Assembly: GCA_051362555.1 (NCBI GenBank)
Contig: CM120648.1
Coordinates: 17,666,587-17,730,586, forward strand
Direction: 5' to 3'
DNA from: Lingula anatina
Lineage: Eukaryota; Animalia; Brachiopoda
DNA length: 64,000 nt
The first letter of the stretch is position 1. Each line of letters starts with the position of its first letter. Under the pieces are notes generated by a model. It made no database searches, was not told the origin of the DNA, and worked only from the letters and a program-made list of their open reading frames with translations. Below are positions 9,401 through 37,280 of this stretch, piece by piece. A program made the translations under genes and the position numbers.

Positions 9401-9593
9401 AATAAGCAGTCTTCAGATCCAACACGACGAAGCTTTGAGAAAAGTGAGGTGTCCAGTATGCATTGACCGGGAAGTCAATACTCTACTCAAACGTTGCAAC
9501 CACGTCGTGTGCGAGTCATGTGCGCCAAATTTATCTACATGCCCTATATGTCGCAGTGTCGTCGATAATAAGGAACGATTTTATTTCGGATAA
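6441..9593 (+). CDS. Inhibitor of apoptosis protein (3 BIR domains + coiled segment + C-terminal RING), ~425 aa; exons 6441-6933, 7410-7535, 7830-7961, 8467-8651, 8913-9015, 9355-9593
   Basis: BIR1 RLHTF..W...LASAGF...CYSC...W...H...SPFC; BIR2 RLHTF...LAKAGF...CPFC | HAQQSPSCPFV; BIR3 RQETF...AGFFYRG | DNVTCFYCGG...EHARWLPRCPFL; RING CPVCID...CNHVVCESC...CPICR. The GT-AG junctions are phase-compatible (1278 nt). The start could be 6495. Confidence 0.9.
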
Positions 9594-9633
9594 ACGTGTT
9601 AATATATAATATTATAGTCAGGTCAGGTCTCGC

Positions 9634-10301: not shown

Positions 10302-12484
10302 GGTCTCGCCTGCTACTGGTAACATGTAAACCAGTACTACCTGTCCCATGGTTGGATTGTCGGCGACTAAACCGGCTCCCCCACTGGGCTTACCCAGTAG
10401 GGATGGTGCGTAAACACCCAGCAGCAATAAAAACAAACCTGTCAAAGGGCGGATGAGCTCCTTTGCGAGTTATTGGGCCATTCCATCAGAAAAAGAGGGA
10501 TTGGAGAATCTTAGCCTTAGTAGTAGAATAGCTGGCAAAAGTACCCGAGGCAGAAAACGAATGACCTTACTTGACAGTTTTGAATTACCAACTAAACACC
10601 TTTAGTCATGGGCGAGAAACAAAAACCTTCCGGATAATATCAACGTTCGTCAAACACCGCATGGGTGATGGCATATGAAGAAGAACCAAAGTTTAGTGAT
10701 TTAATTTATCACTGGGTAACCTTGTTATAAATGTATCAAGAACAAAGTGTAATTTGTAACTGATATCAGATTTATTGAAACTATGTTACAATCTGTTGTG
10801 TTTATTCATTTATTCTTATTAAAACATTTTACAGCAATCCTTTTTTATTTGTTTTATGATCCAAATGCGTCAAATACGTCCACTTTTGTTTGTTATGCTT
10901 TCCTAGCATTAGTTAATTTACTGAATACTTTTTTAAAAGAACATCTCCAAAGCTACTTGGCAACCTGCCATAGTTAAACACTGTGGCATGTGACTCTCGA
11001 CTTTTTGTTCCATTTAATGTGTATCAAATATTCTATATATAAAAACTTTATTAACCTATCAGCATCGATCACGCCAATTCTGTTACAAGTTTTCCTATAG
11101 TAAAACAATCAAATAAGTACCTGGAGCCTCGTCTTCAAAATCCGTAAAACTGTTTTGTATAAGTCTTCCAACTTCCGCTGCCGATGGCCGTTGAGAGACA
11201 CTTATTCGACATAATTTACACTGAGATCATTGCATCCTGGCCTCTTTATAGTAGAACATGTGTGTCTTTAACAGTCTTTAATTCCCCCCCCCCCCCCGCC
11301 TCCTTCTTACTAAATAAAATACAACAAAAATCTATGAAACTGATTTTGCATTACGCTCAAATAATTTACGTTACTAATCAATTAAATTGACATTATTCAA
11401 TAATTTCATTTGGGTAACCTTAAAAACACGTCATTTGTGAAGCAGTATATTAAATTGGACATGCTGTAAATAAACATTGAAAATTCGGCCTGCATTTTAG
11501 GCTTTAGCTAAAGTAGTTGCTATTGTCCCCCTCTATTCTTCTCTCTGCCTGTCCAAGTGCATAACTTTAGGTCATGTCTGTTATTTCTAATTGTTTCTAC
11601 AGTGTAGGCGAGTTTACTTTAGCTATATTGTAAGGGGATTACCTTTGTATTAAGTGATAGCCTAAATAACACTCCATGGGAATCCCAGACCCCTCCCCAA
11701 CTATATAAAACAAAACACTACATGTGCGATAGTGAAAATGTTATTGCAAAATGCGTTTAAAATCGAAGGAATGTTAATCTTAGGTAATCCAATAAAGTCA
11801 ATTTCTTTTAAAGTGTGAATCTAATCTCCAAAACAGCCCATCATTTTAGCAAAAGCGTACTTGAACCACAAAAGAGGCACTTCATCATCCAATATTAAGA
11901 GTCCTGGTTGAGAAAAAAAAACGACCCAGAGACTGATTTATTTCATTGAACCCCCTTGTATACCTTACCATGACTGTCAAAGTTACACAAAAATGTAAAG
12001 CTCCAACCCGATTAGATCAACCAACCTTACAACAAATATCATAGAGCTCGCTTTGTATAATAGCGACATCTATACGTGAAATTGATCTCAACAAACGCAA
12101 TGTTGCTTCCTTATATTTACCTATGCCATGTTTCTGATGCACATTGTACGCCTCTGTTGTCTCTTACTCAAGCACTGGTCGTGTGCATGCTAATATGGTG
12201 TCCTTTATCATATGACTGCTTTTCTAGATACGCCAGTCAGAAAAATAGCGTCATTTACAAACATAGCTGCAATTATCATATTATATAATATTTTGATTGT
12301 GGAAAGCTGCAGACAAACAAGCTCTGACCCACAAGCATTTAATAGGTTTATAGCATGAGGTAAAGGATCGGGGCAAACAAGATTATTTGCAAAAAAATTG
12401 CGAAATGCAGGTGGCCTTTGCATGTCTTTCCGAAATAGTTAGTTCGGACAACTTAAAATAAGGGACTATTCCCACAGATATTTG

Positions 12485-12672
12485 GATCGATCTTTCTCCC
12501 TGGGTAGTCTCACTAAATTGCTATAAACGTAATCGGCTTAAATGCCTATCACGCCCAGAATAGCTGTTAGGGTGTAATTATTTTTACCCCCAAGCTGATT
12601 CGGTAGGCGTGACACACGGCCGATTTAGTTGATAGCAATTTAGTGAGACACCCCAGGGAGTTAAACCGATCC
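12485..12672. mobile_element. Fold-back palindromic MITE (family also at 58568, 61276, 61655)
   Basis: GATCG...CTCCCTGGG...TCTCACTAAATTGCTAT pairs with ATAGCAATTTAGTGAGA...CCCAGGGAG...CGATC; centre GGGTGTAAT...TTACCCC. Confidence 0.75.
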
Positions 12673-13012
12673 AGATGAATCGATCTAGGCATTCATTAGT
12701 CTAAGAAAGAGCCATGTACTAACCCACGCATATGTCACTTCTCCCTTAACGTATGTGAATCTAACGGAGAACGGATCTTATTTACAAAGAGGGAAAAGGT
12801 TATCTGCATTAAATGTATGTGCAGTATTTCGAGCATTAAGAAAATGATTAATGGTCGGACAGGTATGCAAAACACTCAACCCCGCACGGTAACGTATCAG
12901 CAATTTCCTATTCTATAACCCTATAAACTGTTCAGTTCTTGGGCAGTACATTGACTTGTAAATGTATAGATTTACACTGACACTGTGCCATGTATTATAG
13001 GCTTTGGTGAAA

Positions 13013-14308
13013 CTATTTTTCTTCTTTTTCCTGGATAGTATTTGGCGTGCCTATCCAAGTGGCCGACTTCAGGTCGTCTCTGAGATTTTTCATTGTTTCA
13101 ACGGTGTAGGCGAGTTTTTCTGGGGTCAAATATTGGTTGATAACAAATCTCACCATGGCTCCCTCATTTGGGGTCGCCGGATAAAAGAAAACCCAAGGGT
13201 ATATCCCCTTAGAGCACAGATAGTGGTGTATTTCTACCGCCCTCTCCATCTCACCGACAACAACAGATACTATGGGGTGGTCGATGTCGGTCCTAACTGG
13301 GAACCCAGCTTCTATAAGCTGTTGTCGAAATGATTTAGACAGGTTTCGCAAATTCTCTCTCTGTTCAGTTGCCTCCATTGCCAACTCCATTGCTTTTTTC
13401 ACTCTGACGGCGCCCGAAATTTGAATAGTGTTGCTGAATATGCCTAACGTTGTAGCGTGGTTGAAACATTCAGTGACGTTACGGGTGCTGGCAATGATGC
13501 CGTTTTCACAGGTAAGGCTTATATATAAGGATGTGGTTCTTACATGAACGCCGTCTTCGAGACCAAGATGGGCGACTAAACCTTCACCTTGCTCCCCTAT
13601 TATGCCAAGTGCATGGCTCTCGTCTACGACGAGGATGCAACCAAGGTCGTGGCACAAGTCTACCAAGTCGGCCATCGGTGCTTCTTCCCCGTTAGTGCTG
13701 TAAATCGAGTCCACGACTACCACTCCGCTCCCTGTTTTTGTTATCAGTGATCGGAGGTGATCCAGATCATTGTGTTGAAACACCTGCAATCTCGACGCAG
13801 CACCAGCAACGGTCACCCCGAGTTTTAATGTTGCATGAGCAAAGTGATCAACAAAGACTGGTCGCTTGTTTCCTTTGAGCAATATCTCCATGGCTCCAAT
13901 GTTTGCTGCTGTGCAGGAGTAGGTGAGGGCAGCACTTTTGCTCTTCAGCCACCGTGCCAAGGCCCTCTCTGTATCCTTAACGGGAGAATCGACTGGATGT
14001 GAGACAACGCAGGAACAGATTCGGTCCATACCGTGACGGAGAATCGCGTCGGCGTGCACCCGGTTAAGTTCCTCGTTTTGACCAAGTCCAAGATAGTCCA
14101 AGGAAAACATATCCACGTGGTTCTCGTATTTGTTTAATGTTTCAAACGGAGAGTAAGCCGCCTTGGTCCTTGCGGCTAACTCCTGGGAGTGTTGCCCTGG
14201 TACCTGGCCTCCCATCCATCTGTTAACTGTCGTAGTAAGAGACAGGGGTCGTCGGTGGACATGGATAGATTGGTGGAACACGGAACGAAGAGATGATATG
14301 GCCTTCAT
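13013..14308 (-). CDS. CqsA/LqsA-like PLP-dependent alpha-oxoamine synthase, paralog 1 (431 aa; Schiff-base Lys replaced by Ile)
   Basis: Motifs S.DYLGL, VFVDHFAH, FQHNDLDHL...GSGVVVVDSIYSTNG, GCILVVDESHALG, TTSLYISL, IFS, VFFYPATP...VRF; start at MKAISS by homology with the paralogs; the upstream ORF extension runs into an intron and microsatellite. Confidence 0.88.
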   Translation of the reverse strand: MKAISSLRSVFHQSIHVHRRPLSLTTTVNRWMGGQVPGQHSQELAARTKAAYSPFETLNKYENHVDMFSLDYLGLGQNEELNRVHADAILRHGMDRICSCVVSHPVDSPVKDTERALARWLKSKSAALTYSCTAANIGAMEILLKGNKRPVFVDHFAHATLKLGVTVAGAASRLQVFQHNDLDHLRSLITKTGSGVVVVDSIYSTNGEEAPMADLVDLCHDLGCILVVDESHALGIIGEQGEGLVAHLGLEDGVHVRTTSLYISLTCENGIIASTRNVTECFNHATTLGIFSNTIQISGAVRVKKAMELAMEATEQRENLRNLSKSFRQQLIEAGFPVRTDIDHPIVSVVVGEMERAVEIHHYLCSKGIYPWVFFYPATPNEGAMVRFVINQYLTPEKLAYTVETMKNLRDDLKSATWIGTPNTIQEKEEK

Positions 14309-14359
14309 GACAATGTCAACAGCGTATCCCTGATTCATGAGAAAAATGAAGTTTAACTT

Positions 14360-14454
<95 letters not shown>
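14360..14454. repeat. Compound (CA)n(TA)n(TG)n microsatellite in the 5'UTR intron
   Basis: Directly visible. Confidence 0.9.
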
Positions 14455-14458
<4 letters not shown>

Positions 14459-15015
14459 AAATAGATAGAAATTTTCGAATGAATTATCAAATACACATTC
14501 GGGATATGTTGTTATGACATGTTTAAATTTTTATTTTTCATATTCATTCAACAATCTGATGGTTTGTATCGCATAAAATTCAGAATGAGCATGTTTTACG
14601 GGGTCACCGTAGACCGCCAAATGCTTCACCAAGGGGATGTCACTACTTTTATCGAATAGCATTGATTTATTGAAAGCAAGATTAATTTTGGTATTTTTCC
14701 TATAAGGTGTTTTGATAGATTTTTTAGGTATATGAATAAGTAAAACATTATATATACTCGTATTTCCCCCTCTCTAGCTCGCTGTTATAAATCTTGAAAA
14801 GAGATATCTGTATCTGCAAGTTAAATCTACCGTATGTCTCCACAGGTCAGCTATATGGACACATTTTTGGATAACTCTCATATGTAAATTTTTAATGCAA
14901 ACAATAACAATGCCTTAAAACAGATCCATTCTGTTTTTCTTCTAAAACTAAGTTGCTAGTATCTGGAAAATCTTAAAAAACAAGTTTACACATGACTATT
15001 GAGAATAAAACATAC

Positions 15016-15089
15016 CTGAGGCGTGGCTCGTCCTCATAGGAAGTTCACGTCACTTAGTCGTCTCGTGTGTGGCTGATATGTAGCTGCTC
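15016..15089 (-). other. Putative non-coding 5'UTR exon of synthase paralog 1
   Basis: Acceptor tttgttttcag|, donor ctcag|gtatgt; the intron ends at tcatgaatcag| (14330) 21 nt before ATG; shares AAGTGAC..GAAC..CTCAG with the equivalent exons of paralogs 2 and 3. Confidence 0.6.
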
Positions 15090-16694
15090 CTGAAAACAAA
15101 CGTTTTTATTTGGTCCACCAAGGAACTTATAGTACTGCTTTGCATAAAGAATAAGGAAGCGTTATCAAAAGACACATTCTTCTTGGAAAGGATTGATTAA
15201 CATGGTCATTTCAATCATTGACCAGAGATAAAATATTCATTCATTCAAGATTAATTGCTGCTTCGTGTTCTTGGTGTCTAAATACATCTTTTATGTATGA
15301 GGGTGTTCAAATAGCTACAGGTATAATGGTGCTCAGTGGGCTGACAGAAAACAGTAGAGATCAGCTAAAACGGAAAAAGCCAAAGTGATAGAGGGTATCT
15401 GACTGAGTCTGTGACTCTTCTGTTCAAAGGTCAGTCGCTGTATGGATGCTCTCTACTTTTTATCAATTCATTTGATACCACACAGTTAAGATTTAGTAAG
15501 TCAAGGTCTTGCTTTGACAAACCATTTGACATACAATTACACCTATATTTAAGGAACCATAGTAACCAAGTAAACTAAACTCAAATGAATAAGTTGAACA
15601 AGAGTAAAAATGTGTAATGTTGGCACAAATTAGTACTTAAACTCTGAGACAGTAAGCAGCAGTTAGTTAAAGGCACCATGCAACTGTCCATAACACGATT
15701 TCTATCTTTATTGAATAATCACTTCAGGCAATTTGAAATACGATAATTTGACATAATACAAGTGGCTATCTTCATAAGAGGTTTCTTTACCAACCAAACA
15801 CACCAAAGACAGAACGTTTTATAACTTTACCATAACGTTTCCACATATTTATGGTACGGTTACAGTAACGTGTTGTGCTTTTGAGTATCTCATTTGAATT
15901 TGATATAACGCAAAATAATCTATGGATCAATTTTATGCCAGAGGCGCCAGAAAATCAAACCCTGATACCATTCGATACCAATTAAAAGAGGGAAATCTCA
16001 GGAAAAGGTAACAAACTTAAATAAAAGACGGAGTCATGCTTTCAAACGGTGTTAAAGGACTGTGATTTTCAGGAAGGAATTTAATCTTTATAAATTTTCT
16101 AACAGCTCCCAGTGACGAGTTAAATCCCATTTACATCCCTCGTGCGACCTTTGTGCGATCATGAAATTGACCAGGTCGTCGTTGGACGCCCAACGGAAGC
16201 CCGATGATTGCTAAAGACACTTTCACACCATGCACAAAAGAGGTACGTAAGTGTAGCCTAAAACTGTGAAAATAGCACTTTATTTATTCTGCAGATGCTA
16301 AAGCGCAGGGATATGTTGCTCGTTCGCGGTCACCCTATCGTATGCCAAACGTATGAGTAACGTACGACTCAAACGCTCGTGTAATTTTAAAATTTTGAAC
16401 ATTCTCAAAATATTCTTTCAGCCTCTGCGATTGCGAACGTACACCAGTGTTACTTGGGTACGCGGAAGGTATGCGACGTAAGACGAACATACCCCTTACG
16501 TTTGTCTGCATACGTGTAATTTTTCCCATACGTTGGCGCTATATGCTATAGTGGGACAGGGCCTTTGATTAAGATGGCTTATGGAATTTACTCCACATTA
16601 ATATTCCAACATTTTAATAAAGAAATAAAACGTCATACTGAGGATACTTGCATGTGGAATTCTGTAAACAGTCTTGTTTTAAAACTAGACCATG

Positions 16695-16985
16695 CGCATT
16701 AAATTGCGAAATTATACAATTATTTACACAAATAACACTGTGTCACCCCATTTGTCACGGTTCATGGTCCATCTTCCAAGATCATCCTAGACTACACTGA
16801 CCCGCTCTTCCTTTATTTATCTTTCACACGTCAGGGTCAGCACGCTTATCGGACGCTCCATAGACGACTGGCATTTTATATTGTGACATCGCCAAATTGT
16901 TTTGGCTAGGTAATGTCCTTTTTAACGAAATTATTCTAACCAACGCGCCAAAGCTGCCAGTTCTAGACGGTCAAACCATCTGTGT
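16695..16985 (+). promoter_or_regulatory. Conserved non-coding block upstream of paralog 2 (duplicated at ~21934-22175 upstream of paralog 3)
   Basis: Shared CCCCATTTGTCACGGTTCATG...TATTTATCTTTCACACG...GGACGCTCCATAGACGACTG; function inferred. Confidence 0.5.
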
Positions 16986-18476
16986 TCCTCGCCTTGCCTG
17001 CTTTCCAGGGATTATCATCGTGCATTTACATTTTAGATTTTGTCGATTTTTATATGGCATTTAAAGTCATACACCTCTTTGCTAATATTTATGAGCATTT
17101 CCTTCTTCGTCTTATGGTTATTATTATTATTACAAAAATAATAATGTTGAACTCCAAAGGCACATTTTCTGAGTAGTTTTAGCGTAACTGACCAAGATAA
17201 CAAACGATCGTCTCTTGAGATTAAAAATTAAAACAATACCCAAAGTCTGGTATAGTAGAACATTTTGCACACTGACTGCTAGGCACATTTCTGATTAAAA
17301 TCTCGTTCAATAATATTCAGAAAGAAATATTTGTTCTACATTATTAACTTGAAATTAAAGAATGTCGCCAATACTCATATTTCCGAAACTATTTTTAGCG
17401 TTTGCGCAACTATCTAAACAATCCCTACCCTTTCGCAAACTGTTAGATTAATGATCATAATTTTGCAATAGTACGTCTTTTCATTCTTTTCTAATTTGAC
17501 GTCACTATGTCACACCTACAGCTTAAAATTTATTACAGTTACGTTACTCATTTTCCCAGTCAATCTACGTCACTTGTTGACAGGACATGGCGACCATCGA
17601 CCATATCAAGGTGACCACAAGCTACAGCGTAACCAGGTATATGTAGGCCAGATAAATTAGATACAGTAGCTCTTTATATTTATAGCCTTTATGAAACGCC
17701 TCAAAGATTACGAATAAACAGAACTTGAATTGTTATTCATAGTAGGTGAAAGCATGTCAAGAAACGTTTATATCTTATGAACGCCCACGGAAACCCCACT
17801 GGCCCCGATCCTGATACCCACGTGTAGTTAAATAGCAACATGTTAGCACTGGTCATGCCGTGCCATTGTGCCCCAAACTGTTGTTTACTTAGGATAGGTC
17901 TAATCTCTGCACGACCTCTCAATTATTTTGCTAAAATTAGACTATTTTTTAACTGTGTGGGCCCACTTGTCACGGTTCACCTGGTATGAACGGTATAAAA
18001 GAAGATAATATCCATACAATGACAGATTTTAAAACAGAAGATTCACAGTATAGTCGACAGGTGCACCTTTTAGCGTTTTCGTGTTCTTCGAATTTTTAAT
18101 CCTCACTGCTGCCACCGCCAATTTTGCCCGTTACAAACTTGACTCTGTCGACCATCATAAAAGCGATTTTTATTTTTCCTGCTGCTATTAAGTGACCCTT
18201 TGTGAACTCTGCGGACGATCTGCAACTCAGGTAGGTTTAATTTAACATAAAACTTGAAATGGAAATACCCGACATATACTCGTGCGCTGGTTGCTCCGGT
18301 CATGTGTAGATGAAAGGAATTTTCAGAAAGGAAATTATACATTTGATGGTGACAATTATATGTTGTTTATCAATTGTAGTTCGTTTTTCATCTTATTGTT
18401 TGAAGATATAAATATTTCTTAATTTATGTTTTTAAATTGATTTATTTTATAATCAGGAATCTTTGCTAAAGCCGTC

Positions 18477-19775
18477 ATGAAGGCTATTTCAACTATTCGT
18501 ACCGTGTTCCACCAAACTATCCATGCCAACCGACGACCCCTGTCTCTTACTACGACAGTTAAGAGATGGATGGGAGGCCAGTTACCAGGGCAACACTCCC
18601 AGGAGTTAGCCGCAAGGACCACGATGGCTTACTCCCCGTTTGAAACATTAAACAAATACGAGAGCCACGTGGATTTGTTCTCTTGCGACTATCTTGGCCT
18701 TGGTCAAAACGAGGAGCTTAACTGGGTACACGCCTATTCGATTCTCCGTCACGGAATGGACAGAATCTGTTCCTGCGTTGTCTCACACCCAGGCGATTCT
18801 CCTGTTAGGGATACTGAGAGGGCCTTGGCGCGGTGGTTGAAGAGCGAAAGTGCTGCCCTCACCTATTCCTGCACAGCAGCAAACATTGGAGCTATGGAGA
18901 TATTGCTCAAAGGAAACCAGCGACCAGTCTACGTGGACCGTTTTGCTCATGCGACACTTCAAGTTGGAGTGACTTTTGCCGGTGCTGCGGGGAGATTGCA
19001 TGTGTTTCAACACAATGATCTGGATCACCTCCGATCACTGATAACAAAAACAGGGAGCGGAGTGGTAGTCGTGGACTCGATTTACAGCACTAACGGAGAG
19101 GAAGCACCGATGGCCGACTTGGTGGACTTGTGCCACGACCTTGGTTGCATCCTCGTCGTAGATGAAAGCCACGCACTTGGCGTAATAGGGGAGCAAGGTG
19201 AAGGTTTAGTCGCCCATCTTGGTCTCGAAGACGGCGTTCATGTAAGAACCACATCATTACATAAAAGCCTTACATGCGATAATGGTGTCATTGCCAGTAG
19301 CCGTGACGTCACAGACTGCTTCAACCACGCCACAACGTTAGGCATATTCAGCAATGCCATGCAAATCTCTGGCGCAATGAGAGTGAAAAAAGCAATGGAG
19401 TTGGCAATGCAGGCAACTGAACAGAGAGAGAACTTGCGAAAAATGTCTAAATCATTCCGACAACAGCTTAAAGAAGCTGGCTTCCCGGTTAGGACCGACA
19501 TCGACCACCCCATAGTATCTGTAGTTGTCGGTCAGTCTGCTAGGGCGGTAGAAATACATCACTATCTGTGCTCTAAGGGGATATACCCTTGGGTTTTCTT
19601 TTATCCGGCGACCCCAAAAGACGGAGCCATGGTGAGATTTGTGATCAACCAATATTTGACCCCAGAGAAACTCGCCTACACCGTTGAAACAATGAAGAAT
19701 CTCAGAGATGATCTAAAGCCATCCACTGGTATGGGTAGAGAGGAGAGAAGTGTAATCAGTCAAGCTATCATATAA
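18477..19775 (+). CDS. CqsA/LqsA-like PLP-dependent alpha-oxoamine synthase, paralog 2 (432 aa)
   Basis: VYVDRFAH, HNDLDHL, VVDSIYSTNG, VDESHALG, TTSLHKSL (Lys at 19263-65), PATPK...VRF; 5'UTR intron 18231-18456 (gtaggt...ataatcag). Confidence 0.92.
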   Translation: MKAISTIRTVFHQTIHANRRPLSLTTTVKRWMGGQLPGQHSQELAARTTMAYSPFETLNKYESHVDLFSCDYLGLGQNEELNWVHAYSILRHGMDRICSCVVSHPGDSPVRDTERALARWLKSESAALTYSCTAANIGAMEILLKGNQRPVYVDRFAHATLQVGVTFAGAAGRLHVFQHNDLDHLRSLITKTGSGVVVVDSIYSTNGEEAPMADLVDLCHDLGCILVVDESHALGVIGEQGEGLVAHLGLEDGVHVRTTSLHKSLTCDNGVIASSRDVTDCFNHATTLGIFSNAMQISGAMRVKKAMELAMQATEQRENLRKMSKSFRQQLKEAGFPVRTDIDHPIVSVVVGQSARAVEIHHYLCSKGIYPWVFFYPATPKDGAMVRFVINQYLTPEKLAYTVETMKNLRDDLKPSTGMGREERSVISQAII

Positions 19776-20345
19776 TCAAGATCATAGATCAACGCATATA
19801 ACCTTTATTTAGCATTGTCAGCCTAGAAGAAGACATTGTTGGGTTCAAGATAAACAGAAGATCGAATGTATTCAGTATGTGGTATTCTGCATTTAGACAT
19901 TACTAACCCATCGTGTCTCCAGCCAGGGACTACAAGCACAACATAATTTATATACACGTATACAAAACACTCTTTTGAATTATTTATAGACTGAACACAA
20001 GTTAACGGATACGCGTTACTGGCAGATTCAATAAATTTTAATTACTAGGGCAATAAGATCATAAATATTTAACAATACAGATGAACAATATTGCTGTAAT
20101 GAATAGGGATGGACATTTTGCTTAGTTAATTTTTGGTTTTAAATTGATTCTACGCCATTGCTTTCCCTCCCGGGGACAGCCATAACATTTTTCTTATATG
20201 GCCCCCTTACCTTATACACCATGTCATTTTCTATTCATATTCTCTATTTTAAAAGACAATTTTAAAAGACAATCTTATTCGTTATCCTCCATATAGAGAC
20301 AAGGGAAGATAAATGGGACACTAAAAAGTAGAATTGACAGCCACA

Positions 20346-20347
<2 letters not shown>

Positions 20348-20434
<87 letters not shown>
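20348..20434. repeat. (TA)n + poly-T simple repeat
   Basis: Directly visible. Confidence 0.9.
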
Positions 20435-20435
<1 letters not shown>

Positions 20436-21933
20436 GTAAGGAACCACAAGTACAACTTCCTAAGTACATGTATGTAAATATATCACCTCTTAAAGTACAA
20501 TCCATTGGTCATTGCAGAGAGATAATAATAACGAGAGGCGTGTACGACATACCGAGGTTCCCATGTGAATATATTTAACGGTTTACATTAGGACACTGTA
20601 ATATGCCGCAAGCATTTAACGTTAAGAGCAATAATATATTTACCGGTAAAGCTAATTCATATATTTAACTTCTTTCAGGGATGTTTAAACATTTGGATTA
20701 GGTTCCGAACGGAGCAAACTATTAATTGTTATTATAGTTTTAATTCTTCTACATTAACATATTCTTCTTATGCGTTTTTTTTTTATTTCTTTCATTCCTT
20801 TATACCATTCCTTGATATTTTGAAGTTTTAATGAGCTGATAACAAATTTATCATGATTTAAGCATTTTACTTAATGTTTACTGGATCAAAGGGCTGTCGA
20901 TAAAATACAACACTATTGTGAAACTAAGAATAGAATGTTTTAAACATGTATATCTTATAATTGATATACGTATTTGAAGTATAGTAATAGGGGCAAACCT
21001 TTCATACAAAGTGTTAAAATAGTTTTGCCCCACAGTAATTACAACTAACTTACAACAGTTATTCAATAAGGACATCAAAAGTCAAACTAAGTCTACGCAT
21101 GGTGGTTTTTGTAAAATATCTTGTTAAATATTACCCTAGGTTCTAGATTCCGGTATTGCCAGCTCGATCTTGATTTCATATATAACCCATGTCGCAATAC
21201 CAGGCTCTAGTGCACAGCGGCCATGTTAGGCTCCCGTCAATCAAATAGAACGGCTCCGCAGTGAATCTGCAGTTGAATGTCATCAGACCAAAATGAAACG
21301 TAAAACAGATTTAATTCTGCTTTATTTAATTTCATTTGCTGTATTTAAGATATGTTAAGTGAGAAATAAATAATATGTTTCTAAAAGAAAAAGGTAGATT
21401 CAATGTTTTTGTATTTTTCACCTATCAAAGAACATTTAGTCCTGAGATAATAGACACAATACACGTGCTTGCCGTGTGCCAAGTTTGACAGCTACACTGG
21501 ATGCCCGATACCACTATAAGGGCTGCGCAGTGGCAACACCAAAATCAATTTTTAAAGCAGAATGTTGCTTGTATTGTGGCACTGACCTTCGACTGCAAGA
21601 TATTTTCAATTCAAACTTCTAAAACCGCGCCAGACACTTTGATTCTTGTCTCGTCTGCACGAGATTATGTCAGCGCAAGGCGGGAAAGGCAGCTCCAGGC
21701 GGTTAAACCTGTGACGTACGAGACTTATGACTTCCAAATATGGATCCAGGCGGACACAGCTGCGACGTGTGACTTCCAAGTATGGAAGCGCCCCAGGCAA
21801 AATTTTGAAGAAGAACGCCCTCAGATTGTCGCTGTTCGTCAGAGCTAGTGAAAGTGACTCCAAGGTATATTAGATACTAAACAAACTAACTTTCACGTTG
21901 CTCTGACACTCAGGGTAGTTAAATATACGTTGT

Positions 21934-22175
21934 GCATTAAATTGCTTTAAGTATACAATTATTTACATAAACAATGGTGTGCGGCCCCATTTGTCACGGT
22001 TCATGTCCATCTACTTAAAACATCCCAGGCTACATTGACCCGCCCTTCCTCTATTTATCTTTCACACGGTAACCACAGCCGCTGGTCACCACGCTTGTTG
22101 GACGCTCCATAGACGACTGTCATTTTCCCTTTAGCGGAAATAGAGATAGCCAGTTTAAGACGGCCAAATAATCCG
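21934..22175 (+). promoter_or_regulatory. Second copy of the conserved upstream non-coding block
   Basis: Paralogous to 16695-16985. Confidence 0.5.
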
Positions 22176-24383
22176 CACTTCTTTTCGACTCGATGAGCAT
22201 GCAAATGTCCAAAACAATTTTTTTTTCATTTTTTTTTTTTTTTTGGGGGGGGGGTAAATAAAACTGCAAGGGAAGACTCGGTCTCCGCTAAATTATGTCT
22301 GTAGATTTAAGAAGACCCCCAGGGCATGATCCACGCAGTTAAGATTAGATATCTGTCACAAAAACACCTTATATCATCGGGCGGTAATATGTCATATTCA
22401 TCTACATATATCGCATCACATCTCTGCGAGCAAGTAATCATTATCTGTTGATCTTTTGTTAAATATAAATTGAGAATAATTTTATTGAAAAGCATTTGCT
22501 TTAACCATTTTTTTTTACCTTTATAATGAATATAAATATAATAATAATACAAAATATTCACTATCGTGTATTGCCATGTACATCGTAAGCACATGCTGCT
22601 GACGCGTTGCGTAACAAAAAGATTCGCGACGTTGATGTGCAGTGTAGCATAAGAACACTGCCTAAAGGGAGATAATATAGATAGAAGGACATACTTTAAC
22701 ACAGAAGAGTCACTTGGTCAACAAAACACCCTTTATAGTCTTCGAGTTATTCAATTTCTTAGTCCTCTCTACTGAGATAGCTGATGGTCAAGACACGCCA
22801 TTTGGGCCAATAGCTGCTAACAAGTGACATTTGAACATTCTACGGCTCAGGTATGACTCATTTCTCAATACATTTATAATAGAAATGACATTATACTGTA
22901 TGCCCAGTATGAAGGTAGCTCCAGTAATGTGTACATTAATAATTTGAGACCTTCATGATATTTTGATAAAAGATATTAAAACAAAAGAGTTAAAAATTTT
23001 AATGATCCCGTTTTAGACATTGTCACCATGTGCAATATTTGGCATGTGTGGAATATACAGGAATATATGCTAACGATATTGGCCAGAAGAAAAGATGAAA
23101 CTAGCAGATTATTTAGTTGAGCATACAGTTTGCTCTTTTTCTTGAAGAATTTCTGATAACAAATTTAATTTATGTAAACTTACATGTTTGTTGCCCTTGA
23201 CCACCATGCGTCATTTACTGTTCACAGTATTAAACAGAAAGGGGAAATCTGCCAGGATGTGTACCTTTAATGGCAACAAATGTCTTTTGTTTATTTACTT
23301 TTGTCCATTTGCTTTCTTTTTAATTATTTGAATATACATTTACTTATATTAAGTGTATAGAAAATCACATCGTTTCCTCCACGTTGTCCGACGACCGTTT
23401 TCCCCTAAGTCTCTTCAGGGGTGTAGGGGAAGGCGGGGACCGACTGACACCCTATTGTAATAAAAACTGAGATGTCAGGGAAATTATTACCCTCGGGTAT
23501 TCAGTAATTTTTCTTTTCAGAAGGAAGCTTATTTATGTACCTTGTGGTGTAAGTTTGAGAAATCCCCTGTGATTGTTTATAAAGTAAATTCAGTTTTACC
23601 ATATGGGACACACATACTAAAATCTTAAAGAAAAATATATATTTATCCATTGCTATGCATTGTAACACCAAGTTGTAGCTGGCATTGAATTATGTGCACT
23701 GCACTGTTGTTCACCTCTGATAACTTCTTAAAATTTAACCGTGCTTAACAACAAAAAATCACCAAAAGCATATATTATTTGACCGAAATAATACAAGATT
23801 TATTTAAAACATTTCTATTTTGTCAATAAATAACACATCATCCACCTCTATTTTTTTCTGACAGAGGTTTAGTAATTACATTAAAGTGTCGTTTTACGTT
23901 AAAGTGTCGTTTTCTCCAGTCTCCATCAGTGTGCCATATATACATGCCCAGGGGCGAACTAACCGGGGGGTAGATTGGGCGGACCTGCCCCTGACTTCCT
24001 TTTCAAGCATACGATTGCATAATATCTGTAAGATTTATCCAAAGAATCTGTCACAGTAAGGCCATATATCCTGCGTAATACACGCTATACTCAAGTCACT
24101 AAAATAGGCACCTAATAGAGACTTTAAATTATTTTCCAGTGTAAAATAAATTGCGAGATCCTGCTTGCGCGTCACGTTACGTCAACCAGTCTTTTAATGA
24201 TTTCACGTGTCACGTGCCCATTCAAAAAGTTACGTTTCACTTTCGACATAAGAGGGTGTCCAGACTTGCAAAGGGGGTAAACTAGCTCCGCCCTACCTAT
24301 ACAGATTTCAAATTACATTATAATAATTGTCCTTGCCGCCCATCTATCTCCTGTTTCATATCGTAATTTTGAAATCTTTGTAC

Positions 24384-24420
24384 GCCCCTGAAGAACCTTC
24401 GGGCAAAACGGCCGTCGGGC
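24384..24420 (+). ncRNA. Type I hammerhead ribozyme-like motif (GAAA core altered to AAAA); degenerate inverted copy at ~23386-23422
   Basis: GCCC-CTGAAGA-aCCttcgGGc-AAAAC-GGCC-GTC-GGGC: stem I GCCC/GGGC, UUCG-capped stem II, palindromic stem III. Confidence 0.55.
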
Positions 24421-24544
24421 AAAAAAGGACGGAGGAAACAGTCAAATTTTGTTCATTTTTTTAAATCTATTGAATCTATTGATTGGATCCAAACAATGGA
24501 TAGAAAATGATTTGTGGTAAAAAGACAATATTGGCTTTATTTCG

Positions 24545-24582
<38 letters not shown>

Positions 24583-24864
24583 AAAACGTTTTTCCTGTAC
24601 GAGTAATATTATATATAATAAAAGAAAAAGAAGAACAGCAACTTTCTTGCCCCGACCGGTTTCTTTCTTTCTTCAGGGGGTTTTGTTTATTTGTTACTAG
24701 GTGATGTCATAAAGGCTTAAATGTGACGTCTTTAACAATGAGTGTTTAATTGTTACTTTTACCAATGCTTTTATCTATTCAATGTAGGTTTATACTTATT
24801 AATGAATAGATTTTCTTTTATTTCCCTTTCTGTTTGGGTTGTTTCCCTGGTGAATTTATAAAAT

Positions 24865-25438
24865 TAAAATTAAAAAGGAAGCCATACCGTACATATCAAC
24901 ATATAATCCAAAAAATCCGGAAATACATAAGGTCATTATAAAGAGTAAGAGACAAAGTCCATCACTAAAGCAAATTTTAACAAAAGCAAAATTTGAAAAC
25001 AATTCCAGGACATATGTGGAAACCTCAACAATACGAGTACAGAAATGTGAGGTACCCAGGTGTGGCACCTGTCCACTAATTAAAGAGGGGAGCCATATAA
25101 CATTTAAAAATGGACTTACATTCAGAATCAAACACCCATTCACCTGCACCAGCTCAAATTTAATCTATGTATTAACTTGCAGTGGATGCGGTGAGAACTA
25201 TATAGGACAAACTGGAGACACTCTCCGACATAGAATGACCGTTCACAGACAACAAATAAGACAACCTAAATATCAGTGCACGTCTGTGAGTGGGCACATT
25301 AGGGAATGCTCTATGAACAAAAACAAGGATTTTACGGTATTCCCATTTTATAAATTCACCAGGGAAACAACCCAAACAGAAAGGGAAATAAAAGAAAATC
25401 TATTCATTAATAAGTATAAACCTACATTGAATAGATAA
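24865..25438 (+). pseudogene. Penelope-type GIY-YIG endonuclease domain (C-terminal fragment)
   Basis: C...RCGTC linker, FTCTSSNLIYVLTCSGCGENYIGQTG...RMTVHR...H...E...I....P.LN; RT domain absent. Confidence 0.88.
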
Positions 25439-25528
25439 AAGCATTGGTAAAAGTAACAATTAAACACTCATTGTTAAAGACGTCACATTTAAGCCTTTAT
25501 GACATCACCTAGTAACAAATAAATAAAA

Positions 25529-25559
25529 CCCCCTGAAGAAAGAAAGAAACCGGTCGGGG
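25529..25559 (+). ncRNA. Minimal type I hammerhead ribozyme in the pLTR (inverted copy 24650-24680, minus strand)
   Basis: CCCC-CTGAAGA-aagaaa-GAAAC-CG-GTC-GGGG: stem I CCCC/GGGG, intact core, palindromic ACCGGT stem III, GUC cleavage triplet. Confidence 0.75.
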
Positions 25560-25588
25560 CAAGAAAGTTGCTGTTCTTCTTTTTCTTT

Positions 25589-25646
<58 letters not shown>

Positions 25647-25693
25647 TAATGATAGATCAATTATTTTATAATCAGGAATACACCACTGATATC

Positions 25694-26992: not shown

Positions 26993-28832
26993 TCTAGATG
27001 AAAAAATGCATAAACAACTTATTTAGCACTTTCAACCTAGACGAACACGGTGCTACAATTAAACATAACTATAATGGCTGTAACCAAGGCCTTCAAGCAC
27101 GATAGAATTTATATATCACAATTACAATATAATGATTCAAATCATTGGTAAACTGGACCAAGTTAAGTTGAACATGCATTGTATATGTACGTGTCACTGG
27201 TGTATCCGGTGTTTTGATAGCGGAGAGGCAGAAATACCAAAGACATTTATCAATACACATGGCCAATATTGCTGTAGTGAGAAAGGGTGGACTTATTGCT
27301 TGGTTGGTCACGTTATGTTTTTGGAGGAAAACGGATTCTACGCCACTGCATCTCCTCCCCGAAACTGCCATTACTAGAACATTCTTATTGGTTGGACATC
27401 AGCTGACGTCATTCGATATGTCATATTCTCACCTATTCAGTTATTCTTGTATATGTTGCAAAGAAATAATAAATCTTACAAAAGGGTCACTCAAAAATAA
27501 TATTGACAACCACTGCGTGTTTTTTTTGTAACAGTTTATGTCCGTCCTGTCTTCCATTCATGCAATCGTACGCTCCAATGTTGACCGTACTTTCCTTCTC
27601 TGCAGTTATCAACCTTTCTTCACATATTCAGTTATTGAATAGACAACACACCTAATAGCGTTTCTTTATAACGTAATAGACAGATGGCCATTGATGACAC
27701 TAACCGTAGCAGGTCGGGTTGTATTCTGTCCGGAAAGACGAGAAAGTTAAATAATGACCATGTATACCTTAGAAACAAGCAATGTGTGACATTTATGATA
27801 TAAGCAGTGCATTACTGGAGCGGATCCAGGATTACTTAAAGGGGGTCGTTTTTTTTTTTTTTTTTTTTTTTTTTTGAAAGACAGGTCTGGAAAGCGAAGC
27901 CCGCCCTTGCCCCTTGACGGACCGTGGCGTGCTATTGGTATAGAGCTATAATTCAGCAAGTCAAAATTCTAACTTCTAGAGGGGAATATTGGTGCGTTTT
28001 TTTTTTTTTTTTCAGAAACCGAAAGAGGGCATCAGGACACCACGTACGCTCTTACGACCGCCACTTCCTTTACATTCTGATCCCTTTTTATACCCTCAAT
28101 CAATCCCTTGGTTTTAACATCGTTTACAATAAGGTGATTTCTCTTTCGTCTCCTTACAACCGCCCCAGTAGATTCTCTGCATGTGCTCTCCTCGCTGTCA
28201 GTAACTCGCTCCACAATTAGCGAAGTATGATTCGCATATCCGCATATTTCGCAAGAAAAGTTCCGGCATTCACACTAGTACAATCAAAGGCAAAAAGAAA
28301 TAAACACAAGGAGAAAGAACGCATCCCTGTGATGTACTGTTATTTAAAACTATTGCTTTTGAAATAACAGAACCAACTTGAACAGGTAGTTTAGTATCAA
28401 AACTACCCCAATTTTGGGAAACAATAAGATAATACAAACGAAGTTTTTCCTTGGCAAAAATCAAGGCAATTAATTCCAATTTCATGTAGTAAGCATGAGC
28501 TCTTCCAAAGTTGCGATGTTTTTCTTATCGAATAAGAAAATAACTTTTGGCAACTGCCATTGTTTACGCGAGTTGATTTCAGAAAATTTGGATCGATCGC
28601 TGTGAAATTAAATCTAAATATTTCCCACCATTCAGTATAAGTAGTCAGTGAAAAGTGGGTTAAATACCATTTATTGGAGCTTAATGTACAACTGCTTCCT
28701 GTGTGCAACAAGATTGAAATAACTATTGAGGAAACTATAATAAAAGCAAAATTATAACACAATTACTGCTGGGAAATGATAGAGTATTTTAAATTAACTT
28801 CTGACATAGGACGACTTGAATTAGTACAAATT

Positions 28833-31800
28833 ATGCCAACTGCAGTCAACATTAAGTCTCTTAAAGCGGTGGTGTCGGCATCCTTGGTTTTCTCCATCTT
28901 GGCACTGGTATGTGGCACGGGTCACCATTATTACAACCCAGAGGGCTGCAAGGCACACGTCTCTCACTCTTCTGTGTTCAAGTCTCTAGCTGTAAGGGGT
29001 GTGGCTTGGTGTGCGTCTCATTGCTCCCTTGAGGAGGCATGTAAGGGGTTTAACTTGGATTTCGTTGATGCCGAATTTATATCGTGCGAACTGGTGAATG
29101 TCACATCAGATATAAATGGAACAGATCTCATTTGGCGACCTGGATACTCTTACTATGAAAAGGTGAGAAAACTGGAATCTGTATTTGTTCTCGTGAAGCT
29201 ATGTATCTTAATCGAGCACGTTGGAATGCTTCTTAACAAAGATGTATAACTGTTATGAAAAAGCACTATTACCAGGAAAATTAAGAAAATACCGGCAAAA
29301 ATGAAATCTCTGAAAAGAAAGTAGTGGTTGCTTTTTCAATCAACGGCTAATATTGAAATCGATGTATACCTTCAATATTTTTATATCTATCTAGAACACC
29401 TTCTCAGGGAATGAGATTTCACCCTTTTCTATACATAACATCGCTTTTTTCAATGTTCTATTACTCCTCTTCTATCTGTTTCTTTATTTATTTATCTAAA
29501 CATTTTCTTTTTCTTTTTCTTTTCTTTTGCTGGCATATTTGTTTCACAAATTCTAACATGTTATGGCAGTATATATTAAAACCTGTCAAAACGAGCCCAA
29601 ACATGTGATTTGTATCACATATATTTTACCATTTCCAGGTATCCGCTGGCTTCGTGACCGATACTTGCGAGCTGTTCAATTTTACAGGTACGTTTTTAAT
29701 TGTAAACTTGATAAACTTTATTTCGATTACAATACAGATGCAGTTAACGTTATTACGATTACAATACAGATGGAGTTAATGTTATTACGATTACAATACA
29801 GATGGAGTTAACGTTATTACGATTACAATACAGATGGAGTTAACGTTATTACGATTACAATACAGATGGAGTTAACGTTATTACGATTACAATACAGATG
29901 CAGTTAACGTTATTACGATTACAATACAGATGGAGTTAACGTTATTATGATTACAATACAGATGGAGTTAACGTTATTAAGATTACAATACAGATGGAGT
30001 TAACGTTATTACGATTACAATACAGATGCAGTTAACGTTATTACGATTACAATACAGATGGAGTTAACGTTATTACAATTACAATACAGATGGAGTTAAC
30101 GTTATTACGATTACAATACAGATGGAGTTAACGTTATTACGATTACAATACAGATGGAGTTAACGTTATTACGATTACAATACAGATGCAGTTAACGTTA
30201 TTACGATTACAGTACAGATGGAGTTAACGTTATGAAACAATGGCCACTGGGCAATGCTTTTTCAAAAGGTCGTATTTGGAGTGAGGCCCTCAAACGTTTT
30301 TATTGTTAGTTTATCATTTTCCTTATAACTAGCCACAGAACAACAAAATATCAAACAATTTTAATTCAAAATCGGAACCATCGTAATCAAAGCAGAGCCA
30401 GGTGCGTCAAGAATCCTGGGATAAGAATTGACACTACACTTTCCAGGAATAAGATTATTTCCAAGAAACGGTTTTGAGGAAAAAAAGACGTTCCCAAAAT
30501 GGCCACAAGATTGTTAATTCGTACGACTTTGAACAGTTACTTCACACAGACACTGGCTGCCACTCCAAGCCGAGATTGTATTCTAATAGTTAATTATATT
30601 CCATGGTGCATTTTTTTTCAAGTAGCAACAACGTGTCAGATCAATCAACTGGTTTATCTATTTTCTAACCATAATTTTGTCATCACAAGATTTCTTTTTT
30701 TGAAACATCTAATTCTTAGAGCCAACCGGAGCATTTCTTAGAACCCAACTGGTCCAGTTGAATGGAACATGATACCAATTGAAATCCCCTAAATTGAGCC
30801 AACTGCTTACATAAAGAACAAAGTTAATTCATGACAATTAAAAATTTGAATAATTAGTTTACTTGAAATTAATAATATATGAAAAAAGGTTTTTTCTAGA
30901 ATCACCACATTTCAGATTTTATATATTTTGTAAACGGCAACATTTGTTTCTTAAGTATCGAAATATGAATTACTGAATGTCAAATGTATTTTAGACTTTA
31001 GTTTAATGTATTGTTATTACACACAAAATCGTTGACACGATAACGCTCACTTAAAATAAGTTAAAACTTGAGTCTTAATATCTTATTTGAGTCATTACTT
31101 AAAAGAAGTTGGATATTCAAGGATTCCCCTCTTAACGCCACAATAAATACAGTGGAACTCGAAACGTGTATACATCCTAGTTTTCAACAGTAAGTGATGC
31201 GCCTTGGAGATCAATTAAGAAAAACCCGGCAGGTGAAATCTATAAAGATCTTTTATGCATTGTGTGCCTTCATAAACATGTACTATATAATTATCTCCAG
31301 CACTGCCTTCAGTCCCAGAGGGGTTTGTACAGCTGGGAAATCCTTCAGCGTGGTATTACCACGGGACAAACAAAGTGTGGGAAGAAGCCAGGTCTTACTG
31401 TCGGTCTCTGGGCTCTTCCATCTTCCTGACGACAATTAAGGACGCCGAAGAGAACGCTGTGCTTGTTGATTATGTACACGCCAATGGCGGAAGTAAGAGG
31501 CTCAATTTTATGCTATTGAAAAGTGATTTATGATGAAAAGATCGCGTACCACTTTTAACGGGATTGTTGTTTTGTTGCTATTGTATTTATAATATTATAG
31601 TATTTAATCCGTATTATCATTTTCGCTGGTGGATTCATCATTATTTTAATGTTTCAATGTCAGTATCCTTTCTTAGCTATAAAACTCTTTTTGTTGGATA
31701 TATAATATTCAGTCAGAAACCTCTCAAAATGAATAAATAAACGTTTCCCCACATATAATCCGCTATGTATTTATAATATTGCGATATGTTCCAGCACATT

Positions 31801-32018
31801 TTTGGACTGATGGAATCAATGGCGGCGCCCACTGGGTCTGGAACCGTACTGGCGAGAACATAACGTATACCGACTGGGCAAGCGTTTCCAGCGGCACCGG
31901 ATGTTTGGTCATTGCTGTAAGACCGGACACCAGTGACCCTACTCATGGACAATGGTACAAAAACGCTTGTAATCACCCTTTTGATTTCGTCTGTAAACTA
32001 TATCACTCTTTTACCTGA
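28833..32018 (+). CDS. Secreted PAN/apple + C-type lectin-like protein A (260 aa); exons 28833-29162, 29639-29687, 31313-31492, 31795-32018
   Basis: Signal peptide; PAN CASHC....CKGFN......CEL; CTLD WEEARSYC..LG..L..I...EEN, FWTDG...WVW...TYTDW...C...GQW...C....FVCK; phase-compatible junctions. Confidence 0.85.
29725..30232. repeat. 32-bp minisatellite, ~16 copies, in intron 2 of lectin A
   Basis: Unit GATTACAATACAGATG(G/C)AGTTAACGTTATTAC, head-to-tail with no spacers. Confidence 0.95.
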
Positions 32019-33327
32019 AAAGCAGGTGTCATGTCTGTGAAATTTATTCAATGACACAATAAAGACACCGAGCAGAGGTAATCTGTACATATATTAGTAG
32101 ACGAGTTTTGATATATATGGTAAATGATATTCACGGAAATTTGCTCGTTTTATTATTTTTTTTTTTTTTTATCGTTATCTATGAAAAATGAAAAAGCCAA
32201 TGTCAATAATACGTAACCCATTGTTTAACGTGTCCAACCATAGAGGTGATCGTCAGAGTACAATAACGTAGAAATATCCATTGTTACATCAACAAGGGTG
32301 AACGTTTATTATGAGATGACAATAGCTGAATACAGATTATTGCTGGGTCACCACAACAATTAGATTTGGTTTCTTACTTTTATTAAGTAATGGTGTTCTA
32401 TTTTCTTTTAAGTCACGGAATAAAAAAAATTGTCGAGTAGTCAGCTTGATGTAGCTTACCGTTTCCAACTTTTCTCCAACTTTTGTAAAAAGAATGCCAA
32501 AGTGTACCTACCAAGGTGTTACATATACATTAGTTTTCATGTGTTGTTTATAAACGACGCGTTTTAAATATATAATACAGTTTTAATTAATAATATTTAT
32601 GACCACTAGAAAGAATCCTATGAGTTAAAGTCATAATAACTCTTCGTTTTGGCCAAAAAATGGATTTTCCTGGAAAAAACGGCAATTTTCCCGTACTTAC
32701 CAATGGTCAAAGACCCCATTCCTGCATACAAAGTTAATCCAGGGTTTTTTTCCTAAACGTACGGATTTTTGTTAAATATCTTAAGAGATTTTAACTGACG
32801 GAGCCCTCTTTGACATTGCATAGTCATTGGTGACCTACTTAAAACCGCGGGAAAAGCAGACAACAACAACACTATATAACAATAATATAAGATTCATGAG
32901 ATGTATTTGTCTTTTTGATAAAAATGCATTTATATCCACAATGTGTGCCATTCTGGGGTTTTCGTTATCCGACACACTGTACAAAAACTTGCAACTTACG
33001 TCTGCGTCTGCATCAATACGTTTCGCGCCATGTTATTTTGGTCTCGAATGAACACGAGAATCCGCGTGACACCCTTACGTCATTAGCAACGGATGCCTTG
33101 ATGACCAGGAATAAAGGCATCGTAAGCCCTATTGACAAGCACAGATTTTAGTTTTACTACAATAACGGCCGTTTTAGTGGTAAAATACAATAGAATATAT
33201 TTCCATGCGTTGTCTATAATGTATTTCTTGCGGAATATTGAATCTCAAATGAAGAGTTATTATTGCTTTACGAATAGCTGTAGGAAACTGATAAGTAATA
33301 AAAATGTATCATATTATTGAACAGTGC

Positions 33328-33359
<32 letters not shown>

Positions 33360-36166: not shown

Positions 36167-36612
36167 TAAGCTTGTGTTGTACCTGCTATAATAATGAGAA
36201 TGACACAAGGAAAAATACCTAGGAAAAGCAAATTCGATATGAAACAGGAGACGAGGTTACAATATACATGGCTTAGGAATGAAAACTTGTTTTTGTCTCT
36301 TTTCAGTGTAGATTTTACCTGTGTTACATGTTACCCATCTTTCTTCACTTACCCGACTCATGGACAATGGTTCAGACCGTCTTGTGACTTAAGCGTCGAT
36401 TTTATTTGTAAAATCTATCCCTTTTTCTCCTAATAAGCTTGTGTTGTACCTGCTATAACAATGAGAATGACACAAGGAAAAATACCTAGGAAAAGCAAAT
36501 TCGATATGAAACAGGAGACGAGGTTACAATATACATGGCATAGGAATGGAAACTTGTTTTTGTCTCTTTTTGAACAGTGTAGATTTTACCTGTGTTACAT
36601 GTTACCCATCTT
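36079..36612 (+). repeat. 267-bp tandem duplication of the lectin B C-terminus and 3'UTR
   Basis: CACTTACCC...GGACAATGGTTCAGACCG...TGTTACCCATCTTTCTT at ~36079 and ~36346. Confidence 0.9.

Positions 36613-37220: not shown

Positions 37221-37280
<60 letters not shown>

Follow-up and report, generated by a model that had tools for sequence, protein, structure and literature searches.

Organization of the locus

The stretch of DNA analysed here, 64,000 nucleotides (nt) of contig CM120648.1 of the brachiopod Lingula anatina, is referred to as the window. It carries three copies of a gene for a pyridoxal phosphate (PLP) enzyme resembling CqsA, a bacterial quorum-sensing synthase of the alpha-oxoamine synthase (AOS) fold. 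Each copy is comprised of an intronless coding sequence (CDS), a short leader and a predicted intron in the 5' untranslated region (UTR), upstream of which lies a predicted non-coding exon (Table 1). The copies are recent tandem Lingula paralogs of a CqsA-like family which is shared with annelids, probably stems from one old bacterial acquisition, and is predicted to comprise mitochondrial enzymes that would form aminoketones.

The genes belong to the animal. Copy 2 is 99% identical to L. anatina LOC106174632, and at least nine such proteins are encoded on three scaffolds of another assembly of this species; the other 116 of the 120 matches listed are non-Lingula proteins of at most 40% identity. 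The neighbouring genes of the window, an IAP gene and a DUF229 gene, are of animal type. Synonymous divergence (dS) between the copies is 0.23-0.25 (about 0.24), and the ratio of nonsynonymous to synonymous divergence (dN/dS) is 0.24, 0.30 and 0.25 with every 95% interval below 0.46, which indicates purifying selection. Location on a host chromosome, purifying selection and polyadenylated (polyA) RNA, the last observed for a paralog, are the marks of a domesticated gene.

Contamination by bacterial DNA, or misassembly of a symbiont contig into the animal sequence, would explain why the CDSs are intronless, why their GC content is 49% as against 33-44% in 2-kb windows, and why the best named non-animal matches are bacterial. 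This explanation is effectively refuted by the surroundings of the copies, which alternate with microsatellites, animal genes of several exons and a transposon fragment, by the nine paralogs on long scaffolds of the other assembly, by stranded polyA reads, by a GC content at third codon positions (0.50-0.52) near that of the host exons next door (0.48), and by the lack of any bacterial protein above 40% identity among the 116 non-Lingula matches listed. A preliminary description of this DNA had also argued against contamination; its conclusion holds, with purifying selection, animal neighbours, paralogs on three scaffolds and stranded polyA reads of a paralog as the grounds.

Table 1. Positions of the CqsA-like genes, their predicted upstream structures and associated sequences in the window
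Feature	Position	Strand	Remarks
Copy 1 CDS, 431 aa, intronless CqsA-like PLP enzyme	13013..14308	-	PLP Lys replaced by Ile, codon 263 (13520-13522)
Copy 1 leader, 21 nt	14309..14329	-	Predicted acceptor to ATG
Copy 1 predicted 5' UTR intron, 686 nt	14330..15015	-	GT..AG, 30% GC, 15 ATGs, (TA)n/(TG)n tracts
Copy 1 upstream non-coding exon region	15016..15460	-	5' end inferred
Elements within copy 1 upstream region	15055; 15090		AAGTGAC..GAAC block; candidate internal acceptor
Promoter-like block shared by copies 1 and 2	15409-15460	-	Copy 1 side
Copy 2 predicted 5' non-coding exon and promoter-like block	17996..18230	+	Homologous to 22663-22850
Copy 2 predicted 5' UTR intron, 226 nt	18231..18456	+	27% GC, 6 ATGs
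Copy 2 leader, 20 nt	18457..18476	+	
Copy 2 CDS, 432 aa	18477..19775	+	First ~32 codons predicted mitochondrial presequence
Copy 3 predicted 5' non-coding exon and promoter-like block	22663..22850	+	
Copy 3 predicted 5' UTR intron, 2825 nt	22851..25675	+	33% GC, 43 ATGs
Insertion in copy 3 predicted intron	24546..25645	+	GIY-YIG ORF fragment 24854-25438, inverted repeats
Copy 3 leader, 18 nt	25676..25693	+	
Copy 3 CDS, 432 aa	25694..26992	+	Catalytic core intact
Fourth copy, decayed 3' fragment	11537..11615	-	

Enzyme identity and catalytic residues

The best NCBIfam model for the three open reading frames (ORFs) is that of the CqsA-type synthase, NF005526, which scores 272.6, 283.2 and 280.2 bits for copies 1 to 3; the competing BioF and ALAS models score 180-192 and 130-139 bits on the same ORFs. 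In a sequence search of the PDB, 3 of the 3 top rows are CqsA. The predicted structure (predicted template modelling (TM) score 0.79) matches AOS structures, and the top six Foldseek rows obtained with it are CqsA, with TM scores of 0.74-0.79. By model rank, PDB and Foldseek matches and a tree split supported at 100/100, the proteins are closer to CqsA than to BioF, KBL, ALAS or SPT. The CDSs had been described as bacterial-type and intronless, and these matches, together with the uninterrupted ORFs, bear this out. The affinity to CqsA, the presequence-like N-terminus and the missing PLP lysine of copy 1 had escaped the preliminary description. The AOS catalytic set (His, Asp, His, Lys and a C-terminal Arg) is present in copies 2 and 3, where H158, D229, H232, K263 and R387 of copy 2 correspond to H133, D202, H205, K236 and R358 of CqsA.

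The curated cut-off of NF005526 for CqsA membership, 428 bits, is not reached by any of the three copies, all of which fall at least 145 bits short. Six relatives from the animal clade described below behave in the same way: the CqsA-type model is the best one for all of them, with scores of 197-277 bits, below the cut-off. Four positions, N47, an aromatic residue (W/F/Y) at 109, W137 and R241 in CqsA numbering, are fixed in 6/6 bacterial rows and replaced in all 27 animal-clade rows covering each site; Cys or Ser stands in place of N47, and W109, W137 and R241 are lost in all members. Because the curated score is missed and residues fixed in bacteria are replaced, the proteins fall outside CqsA proper. 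The same replacements, which extend throughout the animal clade, mean that the substrates may have shifted and that the product is probably not CAI-1 itself. Several pocket residues also differ from those of CqsA.

Copy 1 has Ile at position 263 in place of the PLP lysine, which its RefSeq counterpart (P0121) retains, and in this haplotype is likely to be catalytically dead. Near residue 331 of copy 1 a further Lys has been replaced by Ile, and the ORF extends beyond the end of P0121, which keeps both lysines; the lysine losses and the extended end may reflect a decaying allele or an assembly error. Inactive members recur among the relatives, in some of which (P0169, P0245, P0153) the PLP lysine or other residues of the core are missing. 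Fusion proteins also occur: in P0136 and P0127 the CqsA-like domain is joined with an MMPL transporter (bacterial, with 18 members in the cluster) or with another AOS domain.

The N-termini of the proteins fit a mitochondrial presequence, as predicted from their composition. All nine full-length Lingula proteins are free of Asp and Glu in the first 36 residues, carry a net charge of +4 to +6 and have 5-9 Ser/Thr within the first 30 residues; the combination of no acid with a net charge of at least 3 occurs in 0 of the 113 other matches that served as the comparison set. Within the first 25 residues of nine full-length relatives, five have no acid and four have one, and the corresponding counts among 107 controls are 3 with none and 23 with at most one. 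The codons of this putative presequence evolve faster (dN/dS 0.74-1.23, few sites), and the confidence of the structural model is low in this part (predicted local distance difference test below 50 for residues 1-61).

Predicted introns in the 5' untranslated regions

The preliminary description had proposed a homologous spliced 5' UTR exon for the three genes, and the signals that it had pointed out are all present at the positions it gave. The AATCAG acceptors end at 14330 (-), 18456 (+) and 25675 (+), at distances of 21, 20 and 18 nt from the ATGs at 14308, 18477 and 25694, and the CTCAG/GTA donors have their G at 15015 (-), 18231 and 22851. The window was searched on both strands for the donor 8-mer, CTCAGGTA, and for the pattern AAGTGAC.{2,12}GAAC. 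The former occurs three times, each time at a proposed donor, and the latter also three times, always 29-41 nt upstream of one of the donors. AATCAG by itself is frequent, with 37 sites. The donors match 8, 8 and 7 of the 9 nt of the donor consensus in copies 1, 2 and 3, and a score of 8/9 is reached by just 14 of the 7524 GT sites in the window. The 4 kb preceding each acceptor contain 259, 223 and 204 GT sites, respectively, and the donor is in every case the best U1 match among them. T-rich tracts are present at the acceptors, whose AG-free zones measure 25, 49 and 18 nt, compared with 18-40 nt at four apparent acceptors of the nearby IAP gene, and the GC content of the predicted introns, 27-33%, contrasts with 40-42% in the upstream exon regions. 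The predicted spliced leaders would contain one short upstream ORF in copy 1 (last exon piece only), none in copy 2, where the region 18020-18230 is free of ATG, and one in copy 3.

The upstream regions of copies 2 and 3 are strongly homologous (z=16.2 over 250 nt, from dinucleotide shuffles). Between copies 1 and 2 homology is clear over the last 60 nt (z=6.1, or 4.4 without the donor bases, but -0.2 over 250 nt), and between copies 1 and 3 it is weak (z=2.0-2.6, and -0.1 over 250 nt). The promoter-like block of copy 1 (15409-15460) lies about 400 nt from the donor; for copies 2 and 3 the corresponding distance is about 180-230 nt. Copy 1 may therefore have a second 5' intron, ending at the candidate acceptor 15090. 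As read from these alignments, the donor, AAGTGAC block and acceptor that the copies share represent leftover homology of a duplicated unit and not a separate element. A 5' UTR intron common to the three copies is likely, and such an intron is ordinary animal gene structure. The homologous upstream blocks and the donors of the proposal stand, and no splice junction is listed among the RNA reads mapped to 11310-20340.

Two other readings of these motifs were ruled out. AAGTGAC..GAAC is not a dedicated cis-element, since it belongs to the wider, decayed homology, and the AGG ahead of each ATG is not a Shine-Dalgarno relic, being the predicted splice acceptor at 18-21 nt from the ATG. Farther upstream, copies 2 and 3 have in common the blocks 16693-16877 and 21931-22126 (80% over 197 nt), and a related short stretch lies near 17950-17980; this second upstream block is a promoter remnant or a repeat.

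The insertion in the copy 3 intron, presumably Penelope-like, contains a GIY-YIG fragment (Pfam E-value 3.7e-6) flanked by 321-bp inverted repeats (92%) with TA microsatellites at their ends, and stops 30 nt short of the acceptor. It lies in the longest of the three predicted introns, as expected for sequence that gets spliced out. At each of two Lingula loci one protein has two RefSeq accessions, which suggests annotated UTR variants. The protein P0274 has an N-terminal extension with a Phe-rich run at its end, directly before the Met of its relative P0130, and this extension looks like read-through of a UTR acceptor.

Transcription

Nine raw-read RNA runs were found by species label and seven of them were sampled, at 6-30% of each run. 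Reads were mapped to 14460-20340 at 95% identity (runs X1, X4, X7 and X9) and to 11310-14360 at 85% identity (X1, X2, X3 and X8). The first interval received 29, 0, 0 and 2 reads, respectively, none of which spans a junction or falls on the upstream exon of copy 1. At about 17.9-18.0 kb there are three sense reads, a number that is too small, and these may stem from a repeat. Expression of the window copies was not detectable in the seven runs sampled.

The polyA runs X1-X3 cover the CDS region of copy 1 from one strand only, the sense strand. The variants in these reads, His312 with the EMERA segment, match P0123, another Lingula paralog, and differ from all three copies. The family is therefore transcribed as host mRNA, and splicing of the three copies is a prediction. 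No read extends past 14360; the drop in depth near the ATG fits a paralog with another leader and is mute on splicing. A short dispersed repeat with inverted ends at 12460-12692, other copies of which lie near 58.6 and 61.3-61.7 kb, collects hundreds of RNA reads from both strands in 4/4 runs and dominates the loose ends.

Phylogeny and origin of the family

A HMMER search yielded, among the best 150 of 10,686 matches, ten proteins that group with the Lingula proteins by profile comparison, and a further search added eleven, bringing the non-Lingula members of the clade to 21. The named members, Owenia fusiformis CAH1779745.1 and Dimorphilus gyrociliatus CAD5126774.1, are both annelids. In a quick tree of 70 rows all 21 join seven Lingula rows (28/70 rows; Shimodaira-Hasegawa-like approximate likelihood ratio support 99). 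In a more careful tree of 36 rows under a mixture model, nine of the 21 form a clade with five Lingula rows at 100/99, and the Lingula-annelid clade is found in 100% of 200 bootstrap trees. The animal clade and 14 bacterial CqsA-like rows are split from the KBL, ALAS, SPT and BioF rows at 100/100. An early quick tree without the animal relatives, in which Lingula stood on a branch of length 2.8, is superseded. The Lingula proteins are 30-36% identical to the other clade members, with which they have a C-terminal KPW-type motif in common.

The relatives on AT-rich metagenome contigs have spliceosomal introns inside the CDS. One locus, L099 (980-1529), has a 137-nt coding exon and a complete GT-AG intron of 413 nt, and the acceptor of the coding intron falls at the same codon in 5/5 loci examined (a set outside which L098, L100 and L131 lie). 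This intron is missing from the Lingula CDSs; gain in that subclade and loss in Lingula are both possible. Divergent paralogs from two assembly prefixes (L095-L101, L131) indicate expansion of the family in another eukaryote too.

According to the preliminary description, an intronless CDS had been captured behind a eukaryotic promoter and a UTR intron before triplication. That the genes are intronless because they were freshly captured is not supported, in view of the annelid members and the coding introns of the relatives, and intron loss in Lingula is possible. The capture is probably far older than the triplication, given the Lingula proteins on three scaffolds (at least nine), the annelid members and the coding introns of relatives. 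The UTR intron was inherited with the duplicated unit (dS 0.23-0.25) and can neither date nor order the capture, which was probably not tied to the triplication.

Lingula and the annelids might each have captured a CqsA-like gene, the animal clade being a long-branch artefact. In Lingula an intronless gene would then have been caught behind a host promoter and UTR intron, which is near the earlier proposal. Such separate transfers would suit the low identity of the Lingula proteins to the other members (only 30-36%) and the Lingula CDSs without the coding intron of the relatives, and a tree with Lingula among the bacterial rows is not rejected by the approximately unbiased (AU) test (p=0.054). 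That tree is nevertheless 20.8 log-likelihood units worse, the clade is recovered under the mixture model and in every bootstrap tree, and its members share derived residues (Cys/Ser for N47; W109, W137 and R241 lost), presequence-type N-termini and the KPW-type motif. Separate transfers are thus quite improbable; in view of the AU result a single origin is favoured, not proven.

The family might instead be an old eukaryotic one, for example of mitochondrial-endosymbiont origin, which was patchily retained without transfer into animals, the Lingula copies having become intronless through intron loss or retroposition. The position of the clade outside the bacterial CqsA-like sequences, the mitochondrial-type presequences and the spliceosomal coding introns of the relatives agree with this, and 19 of the 21 non-Lingula members have no species name and could be non-animal. 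On the other side, the named members are all lophotrochozoans, the clade stands apart from the alphaproteobacterial ALAS, KBL and SPT rows, which stand for the AOS enzymes of animals, the closest clusters in the Atlas consist of 93-100% bacterial sequences (which is not a measure of the family's range), and many independent losses would be required. An old eukaryotic origin is accordingly considered unlikely.

A single bacterial acquisition before the split of brachiopods and annelids, followed by expansion in Lingula, is the reading that appears probable, and several observations count against it. Besides the AU result, the branches are long (1-1.5 substitutions per site), just two of the 21 non-Lingula members carry a species name, and the animal clade lies beside and not within the CqsA-like rows sampled from bacteria (whose monophyly has support of 51/18), for which reason no donor is named. 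The fit of the N-termini to a presequence is one of composition. As to the predicted introns, the RefSeq model of the copy 1 counterpart, P0121, starts at an ATG within the predicted intron, so that no splice is annotated there; no junction read was present at copies 1 and 2 among the reads and loose ends listed for 11310-20340, and no read in the sampled runs was at least 99% identical to the window copies. Absence of the family from other taxa is weak evidence, because a third homolog search missed the Lingula, Owenia and Dimorphilus proteins used as its own queries.

Under a single bacterial acquisition, removal of the UTR intron would let the scanning ribosome reach the ATG of the presequence and avoid the 6-43 intronic ATGs, and the protein would then be imported into mitochondria by its N-terminal presequence. 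In AOS chemistry an amino acid, bound to PLP as an aldimine, attacks an acyl-CoA with loss of CO2, and the mitochondrial matrix is rich in acyl-CoAs. There the enzyme would join an amino acid or S-adenosylmethionine (SAM) to an acyl-CoA in a decarboxylative Claisen-type reaction, yielding an aminoketone.

The array and its neighbourhood

Copies 2 and 3 differ at 1-8 positions per 100 nt between nt 400 and 900 of the CDS, as opposed to 22-23 at the ends. This pattern of similarity, along with mosaic RefSeq paralogs, suggests gene conversion in the array. The IAP gene at 6441-9595 (+) has multiple exons, BIR repeats and a RING-like C-terminus, and the DUF229 ORF at 55588-57153 (-) is a single long exon of 521 aa. 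Between them, at 28500-45100 (+), a small cysteine-rich signal-peptide exon is repeated in tandem as four or more paralogs, with 85-91% DNA identity and shared upstream blocks, which alternate with lectin-like exons; Pfam gave nothing for the two ORFs of this array that were scanned. A viral scan found one distant locus only (31%), and a search for shorter homologs one unrelated fragment only.

Relation to known systems

Three AOS enzymes, ALAS, GCAT and SPT, are usually attributed to animals. If the present reading is correct, at least two phyla possess a fourth, which derives from CqsA and apparently is mitochondrial, and this points to a new aminoketone metabolite in lophotrochozoans. The significance lies in this enzyme family, the UTR intron alone being ordinary. 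No animal CqsA-like gene is reported in the literature searched, subscription papers and bioRxiv supplements being outside its scope; 'autoinducer' has no match in two Lingula genome papers (main text and available supplements) or in two tubeworm papers that analyse horizontal gene transfer (main text). Domesticated bacterial enzymes are already known in animals; a CqsA-derived, probably mitochondrial family in two phyla appears to be unreported. Whether animals enzymatically produce quorum signals of the alpha-hydroxyketone type becomes testable with this family, whose intronless ORFs suit direct expression and assay. A bolder proposal, at present doubtful, is that brachiopods and annelids use the anciently acquired quorum-sensing synthase to make CAI-1/LAI-1-like amino- or hydroxy-ketones out of SAM and mitochondrial acyl-CoA, by which they would manipulate the Vibrio-type bacteria of their surroundings or which would serve as a signal of their own, the Lingula paralogs (at least nine) tuning the chain length. 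LAI-1 is reported to act on eukaryotic cells (PMC4669118).

CqsA condenses SAM with decanoyl-CoA (PMC3376566, PMC9516700, PMC10491745) and binds PLP at K236 (PMC3376566, PMC9516700). The Lingula proteins resemble CqsA, LqsA and JqsA (NF005526; PDB 2WK8, 3HQT) in the AOS fold (TM 0.74-0.79) and, in copies 2 and 3, in the retained PLP lysine and H/D/H/S/R core. They differ in having about 30-37% identity to CqsA and a score at least 145 bits under the curated cut-off, in the replacement of N47, G108, W109, W137 and R241 in the animal proteins, in an acid-free N-terminal extension and animal gene structure, and in that the long ORFs of the window include no sensor-kinase partner.

ALAS and GCAT are nuclear-encoded and have a mitochondrial presequence. 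The animal mitochondrial ALAS and GCAT/KBL have the same fold and belong to the same reaction class as the Lingula proteins, to which they are not orthologous: human ALAS2 scores 119 bits as against 182 for CqsA, and in the tree ALAS and KBL of bacteria are among the outgroup rows. Old transfers of enzymes from bacteria to animals are reported for PADI (PMC8826395), msp130 (PMC11878542) and the cyanoalanine synthase of mites and lepidopterans (PMC4011162). As in those reported cases, a bacterial-type enzyme would have been fixed in animals with a patchy distribution and duplicated later. The Lingula proteins differ from them in belonging to another family, in having as their nearest bacterial relatives enzymes that make quorum-sensing signals, and in being apparently retargeted to mitochondria.

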